Assembly (NCBI GenBank): GCA_016186715.1
Contig: JACPLA010000100.1
Location: forward strand, 157-64,156
From: Ignavibacteriales bacterium
Lineage (GTDB): Bacteria; Bacteroidota; Ignavibacteria; UBA10030
Direction of reading: 5' to 3'
DNA length: 64,000 bases
This document shows positions 43,331-50,532 of this stretch, one piece after another (position 1 is the stretch's first letter; the number at the start of each line of letters is the position of its first letter). The position numbers were made by a program, and so were the translations under genes. The notes beneath the pieces are model-generated. The model saw only the letters and a program-made list of their open reading frames with translations, had not been told where the DNA came from and made no database searches.

Positions 43331-44452
43331 TCAGGCAATCGGCATCTCGTAGATCCGATATTTCTTGTACGGCGTGCCGTTCATTGTATTGGCCGCCTTG
43401 ATCATTTTATCATTGTCCTCGAGAATCCAGCCGGCTTCGCCGTACTGGTAGCCAAGTTTCCGCGCCCTGGCCGCAGTCTCATAGAACAGGACTCCCGCTG
43501 CGCCGGAGGCCTGGTGCTCCGGAAGGACACCCAGGACAATGATCCGAACCGTGTTGATCCGCTTCTTATGCAGCGCGAGCCGGACCAACCCGGGGATCAA
43601 CCATCCCCTCGTATTCGACTTCAGGGCCGCGTTAATATCGGGAAGAGAAAGAGCAAATCCAACAGTTTTGCCGCGTGATTCGGCAAAGATCACCAAATCA
43701 GGAACGACTACCGGTTTCAAATCTGCGGCGAGCGCGTTGATTTCCGCGTCCGTCATTGGAACCTCTCCCCAATTGTGAACCCATGCTTTGTTGTAAACGT
43801 CTTTGATGCGTTGGACGTCCGAGTCAAACCGTTTCATGTCAAGCGAGCGAAACGAAAGACCCTGTCGTTCCTTCACAAGCGCATGTATGCGCTCCAGACG
43901 GTCCGAGTACACCGTCTCCTGGGAAAGCAGGAACGAATACAGATCCTTGATTTTGGTCAGTCCGTACGACTCGATCAACGTCGCATAGTACGGGGGGTTA
44001 TACGGCATCAGGATGACCGGCGAATGCTCGAACCCTTCGATGAGGAGGCCGTACTCATCATTGACCGACGGGTTCGCCGGTCCGCGCATGGCATTCATGC
44101 CGTGTGAGCGGAGGAATTCTCGCGCGGAGCTAAACAACGCCTTCGCGACGTCTCGATCGTTGATGCATTCAAAGAATCCGAAAAAGCCGACCTTGTCCCG
44201 ATGTTCCCTGTTGTGATTATGATTGACAATGGCTGCAATGCGTCCCACCATCTCCCCGTTCCGTTCGGCAATAAAGAACTCAGTCTCCGAATGGGCATAG
44301 AAAGGATTTTTCTTCCGGTCCATGAGTTTCTTCCGATCCATCCAGAGCGGAGGAACCCAAACCGGATTCCCGGCGTAAATCTTCCAAAGGAACCCGATGA
44401 ATTGTTTGGTATCTTTGGCCGTGCGGACAGGACGTACAGAAATGGAGTTCAT
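43331..44452 (-). CDS. GNAT-family N-acyltransferase (candidate bacterial ceramide synthase-type or N-acyltransferase of a sphingo-/sulfonolipid pathway)
   Basis: 373 aa, GNAT-like fold. It lies immediately downstream of an alpha-oxoamine synthase, separated from it by a terminator hairpin. Confidence 0.6.
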   Translation of the reverse strand: MNSISVRPVRTAKDTKQFIGFLWKIYAGNPVWVPPLWMDRKKLMDRKKNPFYAHSETEFFIAERNGEMVGRIAAIVNHNHNREHRDKVGFFGFFECINDRDVAKALFSSAREFLRSHGMNAMRGPANPSVNDEYGLLIEGFEHSPVILMPYNPPYYATLIESYGLTKIKDLYSFLLSQETVYSDRLERIHALVKERQGLSFRSLDMKRFDSDVQRIKDVYNKAWVHNWGEVPMTDAEINALAADLKPVVVPDLVIFAESRGKTVGFALSLPDINAALKSNTRGWLIPGLVRLALHKKRINTVRIIVLGVLPEHQASGAAGVLFYETAARARKLGYQYGEAGWILEDNDKMIKAANTMNGTPYKKYRIYEMPIA

Positions 44453-44559: not shown

Positions 44560-45786
44560 TCAGTGTATAACTCCGAGGCTCCGGCCGACTTTCTTGAAGA
44601 TGGCGAGGGCTTTGTCGAGGTGCTCATCCTCATGCGAAGCCATATAGCTCGTCCGGAGCATTTCCATCCCCGGCGGCACTCCGGGGCGGATAAACGCATT
44701 GACAAAGACGCCTTCTTCAAAAAGACCCCGCCACATGCGAAGGACTTTTTCCGTGTCACCGATGATAACGGGAACGACCGCTGAATCGTGCTCGCCGACC
44801 CGGTATCCCATCTCGGCAAGCCCAATCCGCATTTTTCGCGCATTTTGCATGAGTTTGTCGATGCGATGCGGTTCTTTTTCGAGGATATCAAGCGCCGCCA
44901 GGGCTGCCGCCACGGAAGCGGGAGTCGGACTGGCGCTGAAGATCAACGCGGGGGCATGATGTTTCAGGTAGTTGATGACCGTTCTGTCGCCGACCACAAA
45001 GCCGCCCAACGACGCAAACGTCTTGCTGAACGTTCCCATTGTCATATCTGTTTCTTTTTCCAGGCCAAAGTGGCTGGCTGTCCCGCGGCCCCCTTTTCCG
45101 ATGACTCCGACAGCGTGGGCATCGTCAACCAGAATCCGCGCATTGTGCCGCCGTGCGATGCTCACCATCCCCGGAAGGTCAACAATCTCTCCGGAGGTGC
45201 TGAATACACCGTCGGTTACGATAAGTTTTGGCGCATCAGCCGGGAGCTTGGAAACGACGGCCTCAAGATGACTCGTGTCGTTGTGCTTGTACCGAATGAT
45301 GGTTTGTACTTTTCCATCCACAAGGGCGTTGGCCCCGGCTGCCATAAGATTCCCGGCAACAATGCAGGCATGGTTGTCCTTGTCCGAAACGACGTATTCC
45401 CCTCTCTGGACGAGGGTGGGGATGATTCCTTGTGCCGTTTGATATCCTGTGCTATAGAGGAGGCAATCTTCTTTTCCAAAGAATTTTGCCAGGCGCGTTT
45501 CCAATTCGACATGCAGGTCGAGCGTTCCGGTGAGGTAACGCGATCCCGAACAACCGGTGCCGTATTTCTCCACCGCTTTGCTGGCAGCTTCCTTAACGCG
45601 GGGATCGGCGGTCAGCCCGAGGTAGTTATTTGACCCGGCCATGATGACCTTCCGCCCCTCAATCTGAACTACCGGGCCTTCGTTCTCTTCGATCGCATGA
45701 AAGTACGGATACAAACCGAGCGCCTTGGTTTCATCCGCGCGGGTGAACGCTTTACACTTATCGAAAAGGTCCAACGTGCACTCCAA
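44560..45786 (-). CDS. Alpha-oxoamine synthase family PLP enzyme (serine palmitoyltransferase / 8-amino-7-oxononanoate synthase-like)
   Basis: PLP-lysine block [12 protein letters not shown] and AOS-family motifs ([16 protein letters not shown]); 408 aa. Confidence 0.85.
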
Positions 45787-46078
45787 AGTTATTGAAACGA
45801 GGAAGGTCGAAGAAAGGCCTTCATGTTGGGTAGCGTCTCTCCCGGATTTCGAAAAAGAATCATCGCAGAGACGCAGGGAGACAGAGGGTAGCAGAGCCTC
45901 CGCGATTTTCTTTTTTCAAAAGCGAGACATCATCTCTTTTTGCTTGTCAAAGCAATTTTTAATATACTCGAATTAGTTTCTAAAGTCAATCGACCTTCCT
46001 TGAACGCGGAGAATCTGTATCGCCACTGTTGCCGTCACGGGGGGAACCGGATTCATCGGGAGTCACACCGTTGAAGCG

Positions 46079-47002
46079 TTGTTGAGCCAGGGCTTCACGG
46101 TGCGGTGTCTTGTTCGTCCCGGCAGGAAAGGCCTCGGATGGTTGACCGGCCTTCCTGTCGAGACCGTGGAGGCAGACCTGTTTCATCGACCTTCCCTTCT
46201 CAACGCGCTGAACGGAACCGAGTTCCTCGTCCACATCGCCGGGGTCACGCGAGGCAAGCGTCGCCGGGATTTCTACCGCGGCAACGTCGAAACCACTCTC
46301 AACCTTCTCAACGCCGCCGAACAATACGGCTCAATCAAACAGTTCTGTTTTCTCAGCAGCCTCACAGCAACGGGGCCAAGCCGGAACGGGACTCCTGTGG
46401 CCGAAGAAACTCCATGCCGTCCCATCACGCCGTACGGGCATTCAAAGCTGGAGGCAGAACAGGCTTGCAGGCAGTTTCAGCACAGGGTTCCCGTGGTGAT
46501 CGTTCGCCCTCCGGCAGTCTACGGCCCGCGCGACCGCGATATCCTGCATATGTTCCGATGGATCAAGTTCGGCATCATGCCCCTGATGGGCCCGCGAGAA
46601 AAAACCCTGAGCCTCATTTATGTGTCCGACCTTGCACGGGCGCTTGTCAGAGTGTTGACCTCGCCCATGGCAACCGGCAAGACATATTTTGCCGCCGATC
46701 GATCTGTTTACAAATATTCCGACCTGGTCTCGTTTGCGGCATCACTGATGGGCAAAACGACGCGTTCCGTTTTTCTCCCCAAAGCTTTGATGTACTCGGT
46801 CGCGGCAGCGACACAAACGGTTTCCTGGATCCTGCCCAAGCCGTCAGTCGTCAACATCGATAAGGTGCGTGATCTGATCACTCCGCATTGGGTCTGCAGC
46901 GCGGAAAAAATCAAACGAGAACTCGGGTTCCAGACGACGCTCTATGCGGAGGAAGGATTGAGCCTGACGCTTGAATGGTACCGCGTGCAGGGGTGGTTGT
47001 AG
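46079..47002 (+). CDS. NAD-dependent epimerase/dehydratase family SDR (true start probably upstream near 46013-46019)
   Basis: Extended SDR fold. The Rossmann motif IAVTGGTGFIGSH is encoded in-frame upstream of the first canonical start (TTG at 46079), after a stop at 46001-46003. Confidence 0.7.
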   Translation: MLSQGFTVRCLVRPGRKGLGWLTGLPVETVEADLFHRPSLLNALNGTEFLVHIAGVTRGKRRRDFYRGNVETTLNLLNAAEQYGSIKQFCFLSSLTATGPSRNGTPVAEETPCRPITPYGHSKLEAEQACRQFQHRVPVVIVRPPAVYGPRDRDILHMFRWIKFGIMPLMGPREKTLSLIYVSDLARALVRVLTSPMATGKTYFAADRSVYKYSDLVSFAASLMGKTTRSVFLPKALMYSVAAATQTVSWILPKPSVVNIDKVRDLITPHWVCSAEKIKRELGFQTTLYAEEGLSLTLEWYRVQGWL

Positions 47003-47004
47003 AA

Positions 47005-47991
47005 TCAGAATATCGGAGTCAAGACTTCAAACGACAGTGCGGCAAGAATTGCAGAGACCGGGATCGTCAGCACCCAGGCGACAATAATTCTGCCTGCCAA
47101 CCCCCATCGGACCGCAGAAATCCTCCTCGTCGATCCAACGCCCATAATTGCGCCCGCGATGGTGTGAGTCGTGCTGACCGGAATCCCGAAAAGCGCCGTT
47201 CCCAGCAAGACCAGGGCGCCGCCCGTCTCCGCACAAAATCCCCCCACAGGTTTCAGATGGGTGAGTTTCATCCCCAACGTTCTGATGACCCTCCATCCGC
47301 CCACGAACGTTCCGAGGCCAATGGCTGTGTGAGCCGAGAGGATCACCCAGACCGGCACCTCGAATTCCTCAAGATATCCCCCGGAAAACAGAAGAATGGT
47401 GATGATCCCCATGGTTTTCTGCGCATCGTTGGTCCCGTGACCGAGGCTATAAGCCGCCGAAGAGACAAGCTGGCCGATACGGAAAAGCCGGTCCACTCTT
47501 CGCACTGAGGAATTCCGAAAGATCCAGGAAACAACAATCATCAGGAAAAATCCGACCAAGAGACCAATAATCGGTGCCAGAAAGATAAACACGACAACCT
47601 TGGCTATTCCTCCTGCGTTTAAGGACACCAGTCCGCCTTTAATGATTCCCGCCCCAACGAGTCCCCCGATCAGGGAGTGAGACACACTGATCGGGAAGCC
47701 GTAGCGGGTGCACAGGTGGGTCCAGACAATCGCTCCTGCCAGGGCTGCGAGAATGACCTGTTCGTTCACGATCGCCGGATCGATAATTCCCCTCCCAATG
47801 GTTTTCGCAACCGCGACCCCGAAGCCGAACGCAGCAACAAAGTTGAAAAAAGCCGCCCAGAGCACGGCCATTTTGGGTGAAAGAACGCGAGTCGAAACCA
47901 CCGTGGCAATGGAGTTGGCGGCATCATTCATGCCGTTGAGGAAGTCGAAGAGGAGGGCGATGAAAACAATGAAAACAGTGAGTGCGAGCAC
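47005..47991 (-). CDS. Inorganic phosphate transporter, PiT family
   Basis: PiT motifs (NGMNDAANSIATVV, GHGTNDAQKTMGII); about 10 TM helices. GTG start. Confidence 0.85.
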   Translation of the reverse strand: MLALTVFIVFIALLFDFLNGMNDAANSIATVVSTRVLSPKMAVLWAAFFNFVAAFGFGVAVAKTIGRGIIDPAIVNEQVILAALAGAIVWTHLCTRYGFPISVSHSLIGGLVGAGIIKGGLVSLNAGGIAKVVVFIFLAPIIGLLVGFFLMIVVSWIFRNSSVRRVDRLFRIGQLVSSAAYSLGHGTNDAQKTMGIITILLFSGGYLEEFEVPVWVILSAHTAIGLGTFVGGWRVIRTLGMKLTHLKPVGGFCAETGGALVLLGTALFGIPVSTTHTIAGAIMGVGSTRRISAVRWGLAGRIIVAWVLTIPVSAILAALSFEVLTPIF

Positions 47992-48024
47992 GGGTGTTAT
48001 TCCTTGAATTCTGAGGGGTCCGGG

Positions 48025-48672
48025 TCAGGCGTGCTTGATGAGGATTCCTTCGAGGATATTGGCCGCATCTTCGCATTTATCCGTCGCTGTTTCCAATCCA
48101 ACGTACATCTCTTTCAGCTTGATGAGTTGAATCGGATTCTTTTCCTTTTTGAAGAGGTCGGCGACGGCGCGGTCAAAAATAACGTCGGCATCGTTTTCGT
48201 ACTGGTTGACCCTTTCAAGTACTTCCTGCAAACGACTGGTCTCATGAAGGTTTTTCAAAAGACTCACGCCGCGTTGGAGCTCGGCGATGGACAGGGCCAG
48301 AACGTCGCACAGCTGCACAAGCTCCCGCGGAAATTTGCGGATGTTATAAAGGATAACGCGTTGAGCGCTTCCGTCGATGTGGTCCATGATATCATCCAAC
48401 GCCGAGGTGAGCAAATGAATGTCTTCGCGGTCGAGGGGGGTCACAAATGTTGCATTCAATTCGGAAAAGATCGTGTGCGTGATACTGTCTCCGCGGTGTT
48501 CCAGATCCTTGATCTCATCCACGAGGTTTGTTTGTTGACGAAGCGAACTGGCCAGGGAAAGTTTTTTCAGCAAATCTCCCGCCATAATGAGGTTGTTGGT
48601 TGATTCCCCCAGAAGGGAAAAGAACTTGTCATCATGGGGAAGCAACTGCCGAATCAGTTTGTCAAGTATCAT
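48025..48672 (-). CDS. DUF47-family protein (PhoU-like regulator partner of PiT transporters)
   Basis: 215 aa, helical. It has the conserved PiT-adjacent architecture. The ATG at 48670-48672 was confirmed in the sequence. Confidence 0.8.
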   Translation of the reverse strand: MILDKLIRQLLPHDDKFFSLLGESTNNLIMAGDLLKKLSLASSLRQQTNLVDEIKDLEHRGDSITHTIFSELNATFVTPLDREDIHLLTSALDDIMDHIDGSAQRVILYNIRKFPRELVQLCDVLALSIAELQRGVSLLKNLHETSRLQEVLERVNQYENDADVIFDRAVADLFKKEKNPIQLIKLKEMYVGLETATDKCEDAANILEGILIKHA

Positions 48673-48750
48673 GAGTAGTCCAGGGATGATGAAGAATGAT
48701 AAGGAATTGTGATGTTAGACACCAAGGCCGAAGGACTGAGCGGTATTGGC

Positions 48751-50532
48751 TTAGACCCCGCGCGCCTCAAGTCGCTGCTGAAGAAGGTCGATCTGATGCG
48801 AGACTTCGTGAGGGAGGCGACGACCAAACTGTGCGAAAAACTCCCGCATACTTTTCGCTGCGTTCATCCAACCGTTCCAGTCAACTTCGGTTAGACGCCT
48901 CATCGTCTCGGGGGAAATCTCCAGACCGGAGGTGTCGATGGACCACCGCGTCGGCAAGTATCCGATGGGAGACTCAACGGCTTCTCCTTCCCCCCGTACC
49001 CGCTCCAGAATCCACTTCAGAACCCTGATGTTCTCTCCATATCCGGGCCAGAGGAAAGCGCCGTTCTCATCTTTTCGAAACCAGTTCACGCGGAAAATCA
49101 GCGGAGGCTTTTTCAATTTTCTGCCGATTGCCAACCAATGATTGAAATAATCTCCCATATGATAGCCGCAAAACGGAAGCATGGCCATGGGGTCGCGGCG
49201 CACAACTCCAACGGCGCCGGTCGCAGCGGCCGTCGTCTCCGCGCCCATGCCCGCCCCCATCATCACGCCGTGTTCCCAATTCAACGACTGCATGACCAGC
49301 GGAACAATCACCGATCGCCGGCTTCCGAAAATGATTGCCGAAATCGGAACCCCTTCTGGATCCTCCCAGGCATCATCGATCGAAGGACATTGAGATGCAG
49401 GGGCTGTAAACCGCGAATTCGGATGAGCGGCATCCCCTCGGCCGCTTTTCCAGATCTCGCCACGCCAATCGAGGAGACCCGCAGGCGGATCCACACCGAT
49501 TCCTTCCCACCATGGTTCTCCGCCGGGTGTCATCGCGACATTCGTAAAGATCGTCCCACGATGCACCATTTCCATGGCCACCGGGTTTGTCTTTGAACTC
49601 ATTCCGGGCGCGACACCGAAGAATCCCGCTTCAGGATTGATGGCTCGCAGTCGACCATCTCCGTCGATGTGGAGCCACGCAATGTCGTCACCGACAGTTG
49701 TAATCTTGTATCCCTGGTCAGCCAGAGCGGAGACCATCATGGCGAGGTTGGTTTTGCCGGAGGCGCTGGGAAACGCGGCCGCCATGTATGTCTTGTGTCC
49801 GCCCGGATCCTCAAGACCGAGAATCAACATGTGTTCCGCCATCCATCCTTCCTCACGCGCCATCCAGCTGGCAATCCGCAGGGCGAAACATTTCTTGCCG
49901 AGGAGCGCGTTACCGCCGTATCCTGATCCGAAACTCCAGATCAGTCTTTCTTCCGGAAAATGAAGGATGAACCGCCGGGCAGGATCGAGGTCGCCCAGGG
50001 AGTGAAGACCGGGAACAAATTCGCCCGATTCGTGGAGATGATCCATTGCCGGCTTACCCACGCGTGTCATGATGTGCATGTTGACAGCAACATACAGACT
50101 GTCGGTGACTTGAATTCCAACCTTGCTGTATGGCGAACCCACCGGCCCCATCAGGTACGGGATGACATACATCCTCCTTCCCTTCATGCTCCCGGTGAAC
50201 AGCCTTCCCACTTTTTCCTTCGCATCCTTTGGAGCCATCCAGTTGTTTGTAGGACCGGCATCGTCTTTTGAGCGGGTGCAGATGAAAGTCAGATCTTCCG
50301 TCCGCGCCACATCATTGGTGCTGCTGCGATGGAGGTAACAGTTGGGGTACGTCTTTTCATTCAGCTTCACGAGGGTCCCGTCTTCGAGCATCCTTTCAAC
50401 GAATGTCCGGTATTCTTCCTTCGAACCATCACACCAGTAGATCGAATCAGGTTGTGTGAGTCGGGCGGCTTCATCGACCCATTCCTGCATCGACGGATGC
50501 GCAGCAGCTCCATTTTTCTGTAAGGAAATCAC
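48751..50532 (-). CDS. pckG: Phosphoenolpyruvate carboxykinase (GTP)
   Basis: GTP-PEPCK kinase-1a block [15 protein letters not shown] and PEP/OAA-binding motifs; 593 aa. GTG start. Confidence 0.9.

Follow-up and report, generated by a model that had tools for sequence, protein, structure and literature searches.

An SDR gene of an Ignavibacteriales-like lineage whose translation probably begins at a conserved AUH codon (AUC) behind a Shine-Dalgarno site

The window analysed here, a stretch of 64,000 nucleotides of DNA from an Ignavibacteriales bacterium, contains an SDR gene whose NAD-binding motif is encoded ahead of its first canonical start codon. We hold it very probable that this gene is intact and functional, and that its translation begins at the codon ATC (AUC) at positions 46019..46021, by way of a Shine-Dalgarno-like GGAG at 46008..46011, in an arrangement conserved in its clade. 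The coding sequence would then run from 46019 to 47002 on the plus strand, 327 amino acids and a stop, and its product, of the NAD-dependent epimerase/dehydratase family, is a CerR-like candidate. Actual initiation at 46019 is what we infer from the reading frame, the protein family and the orthologues.

The frame of the gene is closed upstream by a TGA at 46001..46003, the nearest in-frame stop above the TTG at 46079..46081; comparable near stops are found in the orthologous loci L164, L166, L006 and L007. After the TGA, the codons read ACG CGG AGA ATC TGT ATC GCC ACT GTT GCC GTC ACG, with the two ATC at 46013 and 46019, and this last ACG is followed, in the stretch from 46037, by GGG GGA ACC GGA TTC ATC GGG AGT CAC. 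The translation is T R R I C I A T V A V T G G T G F I G S H T V E A. This confirms what a sequence-only reading of the region had claimed, namely that the Rossmann motif lies in frame upstream of the first canonical start: the TGxxGxxG dinucleotide-binding motif TGGTGFIGSH, at 46037..46066, is encoded 14 codons ahead of TTG 46079, which is followed by TTG 46082 and GTG 46100. The same reading held that no ATG, GTG or TTG precedes the Gly-rich motif and that only two ATC codons are available; on re-reading, there is indeed no such in-frame codon in 46004-46078, and the ATC at 46013..46015 and the ATC at 46019 are the only AT-starting codons ahead of TGGTGFIGSH. [quoted passage not shown]

Started at 46019, the protein scores 123.7 bits against PF01370, above the gathering threshold of 20.9 bits, and the match begins at residue 4 and covers profile positions 1-234 of 240. 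Started at TTG 46079, it matches only from profile position 43 of 240: the 42 positions cut off hold strand beta-1 and the Gly-rich TGxxGxxG loop, and the claim that this start deletes the dinucleotide-binding loop is therefore upheld. The segment TGGTGFIG forms residues 7-14 (46037-46060) and is invariant in the alignments, and the catalytic Ser...YxxxK is present, with S114, Y139 and K143 invariant in alignments of 26 and of 28 sequences. By its whole-domain score, its N-terminal motif and its catalytic residues, the gene product is an extended SDR (PF01370). The best NCBIfam model, TIGR03466, aligns end to end, its positions 2-325 of 327 covering residues 3-325, and solved SDR structures (PDB) align from query residues 2-6. 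Since the HMM and PDB alignments begin at residues 2-6, and since every canonical start would leave the Rossmann fold incomplete, the protein itself argues for a start at 46019.

The orthologues point to the same codon. The DNA of 15 of them, from other species and with 47-70% identity, was read together with the window, for a total of 16 loci; all the sequences compared come from uncultured MAGs or metagenomes. Scans of metagenomes and genomes yielded at least six close relatives, and the remaining orthologue DNA was obtained through exact-protein matches chosen partly by their odd gene calls: the selection is biased in that 9 of the 15 loci were picked for odd-looking calls. All 15 have ATC, ATT or ATA (ATH, or AUH in the mRNA) at the codon aligned with 46019, and the unbiased top hits among the matches listed (L004-L007, L084 and L085) have ATH in six cases out of six. 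The codon is ATC in the window, L164, L165, L168, L005, L170 and L007, ATT in L004, L166, L006, L085, L171 and L175, and ATA in L084, L169 and L172; it is ATG in L173, to which we return below. The alignment of orthologue N-termini, which the sequence-only reading had suggested as a check, thus shows a conserved ATH codon at 46019, ahead of the Rossmann motif.

In a codon-by-codon table of these loci, the column at 46019 contains only I or M, and each of the four columns upstream contains 6 to 9 different residues, stop included; as read from the table, the boundary of amino-acid conservation falls exactly at codon 46019. From codon 4 onward, invariant residues are carried by up to four synonymous codons, a variation that indicates purifying selection on the translated region; within the TGxxGxxG motif, T, G, G, G, F, G, S and H are invariant over such synonymous variation. 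Neither TTG 46079 nor GTG 46100 has a counterpart that is kept as a start codon: the codon aligned with the first is CTG, TTC, TTA, TTT, CTA or CTT in most orthologues, and TTG again in L169, L007 and L175. The window, L164, L166, L006 and L007 have a stop in frame 0-6 codons ahead of the ATH codon; in L164 a TGA directly abuts the ATC start, and in the other four the distance is 4-5 codons. In 11 of the 16 loci the frame is open further upstream, and a start there is excluded only by the lack of conservation and by the overlap with the promoter-like element described below.

The Shine-Dalgarno sites accompany these codons. The GGAG of the window ends 7 nt before ATC 46019, and most of the 15 orthologues have GGAG, GGAGG or GGGAG 3-8 nt ahead of their ATH codon; L165 and L166 have weaker sites of the AGG type, and the 3-8 nt spacing holds for all 16 loci. 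The median pairing energy to CACCUCCUU is -9.5 kcal/mol in the ATH loci versus -2.4 in 134 canonical-start homologues, in a comparison that ignores kinship. In L164 (456-482), a mini-ORF of five codons, TTG AAA CGG AGG AGT TGA, spans the Shine-Dalgarno site and ends at the ATC; it is not conserved in the other orthologues.

On a neighbour-joining tree, the ATH loci are spread throughout one clade, and the proteins of an outgroup clade (Kryptonia-like and others) begin in the ordinary way with M or V. A nested subclade, P0004-P0022, has canonical M calls, and its sole member read as DNA, L173/L174, has a true ATG. In this member (1790-2003), an insertion of about 110 nt separates the upstream element from the ATG, the element is kept beside the Spt-like gene, and a search upstream of the ATG of L173 found no Shine-Dalgarno site. 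As placed on this tree, the nested subclade has switched to AUG, with loss of the Shine-Dalgarno site and a remodelled leader. All the AUH starts come with a Shine-Dalgarno site and the regained AUG has none, a pattern that fits stabilising selection on total initiation strength. The best explanation, we infer, is that an AUH start with a strong Shine-Dalgarno site is an ancestral and conserved feature of this orthologue clade in Ignavibacteriales-like bacteria.

There remains the choice between the two ATC codons. Translation from 46013 would give a protein of 329 amino acids, MCIATV..., and this is how NCBI annotates it: MBI2620104.1 (P0121, from an Ignavibacteriales bacterium MAG, MCIATVAVTGG...) is the same gene, and 46013 is likewise an ATC, in frame and downstream of the TGA. 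However, GGAG ends at 46011, which would leave a spacer of 1 nt compared to 3-8 nt in the orthologues; none of these has ATH at the aligned column, where the residues are D, G, H, I, L, S, T and V; and the column between the two ATC is a stop codon in L164. The alignment of the orthologous ATH codons and the Shine-Dalgarno spacing thus lead us to prefer 46019 and to consider 46013 an unlikely start, so that one of the two candidates of the sequence-only reading stands and the other is disfavoured. Initiation of the SDR gene at ATC would then be already implicit in the NCBI annotation, probably placed two codons early. The database has a second ATH start in this family, P0065 (MPTALVTGG...), which is encoded by L175 and whose first codon is ATT. 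That NCBI annotators already accept ATH starts in these two cases also speaks for 46019.

Public gene calls in this clade otherwise go astray. Among relatives with at least 47% identity, many calls are truncated and start at VTGG or further downstream; others have long N-terminal extensions, which are a conserved upstream DNA motif translated in varying frames; and the relatives with odd calls have Ile where other relatives carry Met. The errors are systematic in the proteins P0001-P0079: about 18 calls are cut short and begin only after the NAD-binding motif, 8 begin at VTGG, and about 20 run on upstream across the promoter-like element. The origin of these miscalled proteins lies in callers that do not allow ATH starts.

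Truncated calls of this kind could also be taken at face value: after a recent loss of its start codon, the gene would be a pseudogene, or would yield only a shortened protein from TTG 46079 or GTG 46100. Callers of the Prodigal type do give such products (P0001, 300 amino acids), and a canonical start is absent ahead of the motif. Against this stand the same layout in 15 orthologues with intact open reading frames (327 codons), the first 20 codons varying synonymously over invariant residues, a truncated product that would have neither beta-1 nor the TGxxGxxG loop, and a search for Shine-Dalgarno sites that found none before 46079 or 46100. Moreover TTG 46079, which is Leu21 in the proposed protein and which we judge not to be the start, is CTG in sister strains. 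We regard a decayed or shortened gene as very improbable. The recent start-codon loss envisaged by the sequence-only reading is rejected, the ATH codon, the Shine-Dalgarno site and the 327-codon frame being conserved down to 47% identity, and its suggestion of non-canonical ATC initiation gains strong support from the same features in the 15 orthologues.

Another possibility is that the missing ATG is an error of sequencing or assembly, for example a base gained or lost in the G6 run (46039-46044) or a wrong base call at 46021. A homopolymer run does lie just downstream of the start, and MAG assemblies can contain errors. However, the same sequence is found in three Logan assemblies from different SRA runs (SRR12113385, SRR12113424 and SRR12113425), each of which encodes P0001, a product 99% identical to that of the window, and in the NCBI MAG protein; orthologues without any G6 run share the ATH start; and the in-frame translation yields a perfect TGGTGFIGSH motif. 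Over 45800-46130 the Logan assemblies are identical to the window except for polymorphic C/A at 45994 and T/C at 46079, so that the TGA, both ATC and the G6 run are the same in all four. The second polymorphism turns TTG 46079 into the synonymous CTG (Leu) in two of the three assemblies (L001 and L003, from 99% identical strains). An error has next to no probability on this evidence, and this option of the sequence-only reading is discarded. Frameshifting at the G6 run was also considered and is ruled out by the absence of the run from orthologues. The leader C/A at 45994 and the T/C at 46079 define two natural-population haplotypes among the window and L001-L003, and P0001 differs from the window protein by one amino acid (L/V).

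Upstream of the gene lies an intergenic element that about 25 loci share with fixed spacings, TTG(C/A)TT-N17-TATACT-N13-AAAGTCAA, at 45940-45989 in the window. It is found in the window, L004-L007, L009-L011, L013, L018, L023, L084-L086, L089, L091, L092, L099 and L164-L175, and is thus conserved well beyond the ATH-start clade. On the plus strand, it contains a promoter-like TTGCTT-N17-TATACT (45940..45968), whose sequence and spacing are kept in these loci; it is weak by consensus (3/6 for the -35 and 5/6 for the -10), was not called by the promoter scan, and has its predicted transcription start near 45975, for an SDR 5' UTR of about 44 nt. On the minus strand, a promoter-like TTGACT-N17-TATATT (45961..45989) faces the Spt-like gene and holds the conserved AAAGTCAA (45982-45989). 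This second site matches the sigma-70 consensus at 10 of 12 positions, shuffled sequences giving a mean of 0.3, and is the sole promoter-like site in the scan. The -10 hexamers of the two strands overlap, and the spacing ATATACT-N13-AAAGTCAA is strictly conserved. The simplest reading is that the element would be a bidirectional promoter shared by the Spt-like and SDR arms.

An RNA element was also considered. Across the whole window, Rfam gave no match to a known RNA family at its gathering threshold, the segment 45700-46150 searched with a permissive E-value gave only chance-level eukaryotic hits, and the predicted 5' UTRs of 16 clade loci, once folded, had no shared structure; this last result is why the upstream motif is read as promoter hexamers. 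A perfect palindrome, TTGCTTgtcaAAGCAA, overlaps the plus-strand -35 at 45940-45955; the window shares it only with L165 and L004, more distant orthologues lack it, and it may be a lineage-specific operator or due to chance. Compared to orthologues such as L170, the intergenic sequence between the element and the Spt-like start is longer by some 120-150 nt in the window and its closest strains (45787-45935), and the Spt-like mRNA would accordingly have a 5' UTR of about 180 nt; this segment has no Rfam hit.

The element also bears on the possibility that ribosomes initiate out of frame, at TTG 45940 or TTG 46000, and reach the SDR frame by frameshifting or reinitiation. An open reading frame of 44 codons (45940-46074) does overlap the SDR start, and the mini-ORF of L164 ends at a TGA that abuts the ATC. 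Yet what the orthologues share upstream is a similarity of DNA, whose frame changes from one orthologue to another, a conserved slippery site is missing, and the upstream frame would begin within the promoter-like element. Such a detour strikes us as extremely unlikely. Initiation at 46019 itself draws support from this region: the distance from the element to the ATH codon varies by lengths that are not multiples of 3, and conservation of amino acids begins at the codon.

The neighbours of the gene suggest what its product does. Divergent from it, on the minus strand, are a serine-palmitoyltransferase-like alpha-oxoamine synthase of 404 amino acids (44560..45774), whose best NCBIfam model is NF047600 with 477 bits, below the cut-off of 640, and a GNAT-like protein of 373 amino acids (43331..44452; PF00583, 30.2 bits), a candidate bacterial ceramide synthase. 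This three-gene synteny, with both genes divergent from the SDR gene, holds in 8 of the 8 loci with enough flank, and a protein of about 372 amino acids occupies the GNAT-like position in all eight whose contig reaches far enough. The known bacterial ceramide pathway, whose genes are often clustered, consists of Spt, a ceramide synthase of the GNAT type (bCerS) and a reductase that resembles NDUFA9 (CerR) (PMC11087976, PMC11334938). The SDR protein matches NDUFA9 chains with E about 2e-11, and GalE-type epimerases score as well or better. Based on this match and on neighbours that resemble a ceramide cluster, the protein is probably a CerR-like reductase.

Two other features of the neighbourhood are worth recording. 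For the Spt-like gene, too, a start other than ATG is conserved: among 17 loci (the window and 16 orthologous loci), 15 have TTG and 2 have GTG, and each of the 17 has GGAG or GAGG 6-8 nt upstream (45772-45786 in the window, minus strand). Its start in the window is most likely TTG 45774, which follows a GGAG at 45784-45781 and gives the 404 amino acids, and not the first TTG, at 45786. Downstream of the SDR gene, at 47005-50532 on the minus strand, are genes for a PHO4 phosphate transporter, PhoU_div and a GTP-dependent PEPCK, a block that is syntenic with the SDR gene in L001, L168 and L173/L174 and is kept in closer relatives.

These elements can be assembled into a mechanism. The reductase gene would be transcribed from a promoter region common to the divergent Spt-like and GNAT-like genes of a ceramide-type lipid cluster. 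On its mRNA, the strong Shine-Dalgarno site GGAG would anchor the 30S subunit 7 nt ahead of AUC 46019, and the initiator tRNA would read this near-cognate codon as fMet. The N-terminus would then be (f)M-ATVAVTGGTGFIGSHTVEALLSQGFTVR, and MCIATV... if 46013 were used. A weak codon combined with a strong Shine-Dalgarno site may set a low level of reductase translation, possibly sensitive to IF3 or to the growth state, and low reductase output relative to the co-transcribed divergent arm would be its most likely role. Selection for a weak start, rather than its mere tolerance, is unproven: avoidance of G at the third position of the start codon was looked for, but there are too few independent changes, and ATG occurs. 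More tentatively, and with the odds somewhat against it, one may conjecture that AUH with an obligatory strong Shine-Dalgarno site has been selected across a deep clade, as a set-point for the final ceramide-type reductase step or as a sensor of IF3 or of the growth state.

The practical consequence lies in annotation. Callers that admit only ATG, GTG and TTG give wrong annotations for this SDR family: many of its public products are 300-307 amino acids long and lack the NAD-binding loop, or reach into the promoter region, and such miscalls corrupt homology-based surveys of sphingolipid genes in metagenomes. Many genes of this lineage have no Shine-Dalgarno site, and a clade-wide AUH start with a strong one would also be a natural experiment on compensation between start codon and Shine-Dalgarno strength, and it hints at translational tuning of an enzyme of a lipid pathway. 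To our knowledge, conserved AUH start codons are very rare, and we have found in the literature no description of a clade-wide AUH start with an obligatory Shine-Dalgarno site. If AUH has been selected in the way conjectured above, the SDR gene would be among the very few deeply conserved AUH-start genes outside infC; start-codon and Shine-Dalgarno strength would co-evolve, the site being lost where AUG is regained; and the divergent Spt-like gene, with its conserved UUG or GUG and Shine-Dalgarno site, would share with it one conserved bidirectional promoter.

It is natural to compare this gene with known systems. HpnA, the hopanoid-associated sugar epimerase, provides the best NCBIfam model of the SDR protein (TIGR03466), aligned end to end, but there are no hopanoid genes near the window gene, and identity with HpnA is rejected since its 150.7 bits fall far short of the 367.65 required by the cut-off. 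Bacterial promoters that work in both directions through overlapping -10 elements are a known class. The intergenic element resembles them in having two sigma-70-like -35/-10 pairs on opposite strands between divergent genes, and differs in its weak plus-strand -35 (3/6) and in being a promoter predicted from sequence. The likeness to CerR in the Spt-bCerS-CerR clusters, as in Caulobacter crescentus (PMC11087976, PMC11334938), lies in an NAD-binding SDR with similarity to NDUFA9 that adjoins Spt-like and GNAT-like acyltransferase genes in conserved synteny; the Spt-like protein of the window stays at 477 bits for a 640-bit NCBIfam cut-off.

The closest parallels for the start itself, in E. coli and relatives, are infC, which encodes IF3, with AUU or AUC, and pcnB, with AUU. 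Initiation from AUA, AUC or AUU reaches 1-2% of the AUG level in E. coli and gives an N-terminal Met, and infC and pcnB are the only confirmed AUU-start genes there (bioRxiv 10.1101/063800); IF3 autoregulation acts on the AUU or AUC start of infC, and a regulatory function is proposed for conserved non-AUG starts in some genes (PMC5499595). The SDR gene would share with both a near-cognate AUH codon that is conserved in orthologues behind a Shine-Dalgarno site, with low initiation efficiency and discrimination by IF3 to be expected (bioRxiv 10.1101/063800; PMC5499595). It differs in that it encodes an SDR of a lipid pathway rather than a factor of translation or RNA metabolism, in that it has no obvious autoregulatory logic and all three AUH codons interchange, and in that it belongs to an Ignavibacteriales-like lineage of MAGs, where the start is predicted from DNA. 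With these differences, the SDR gene would be a conserved AUH start of the infC type: a real but modest example, and not a new mechanism.
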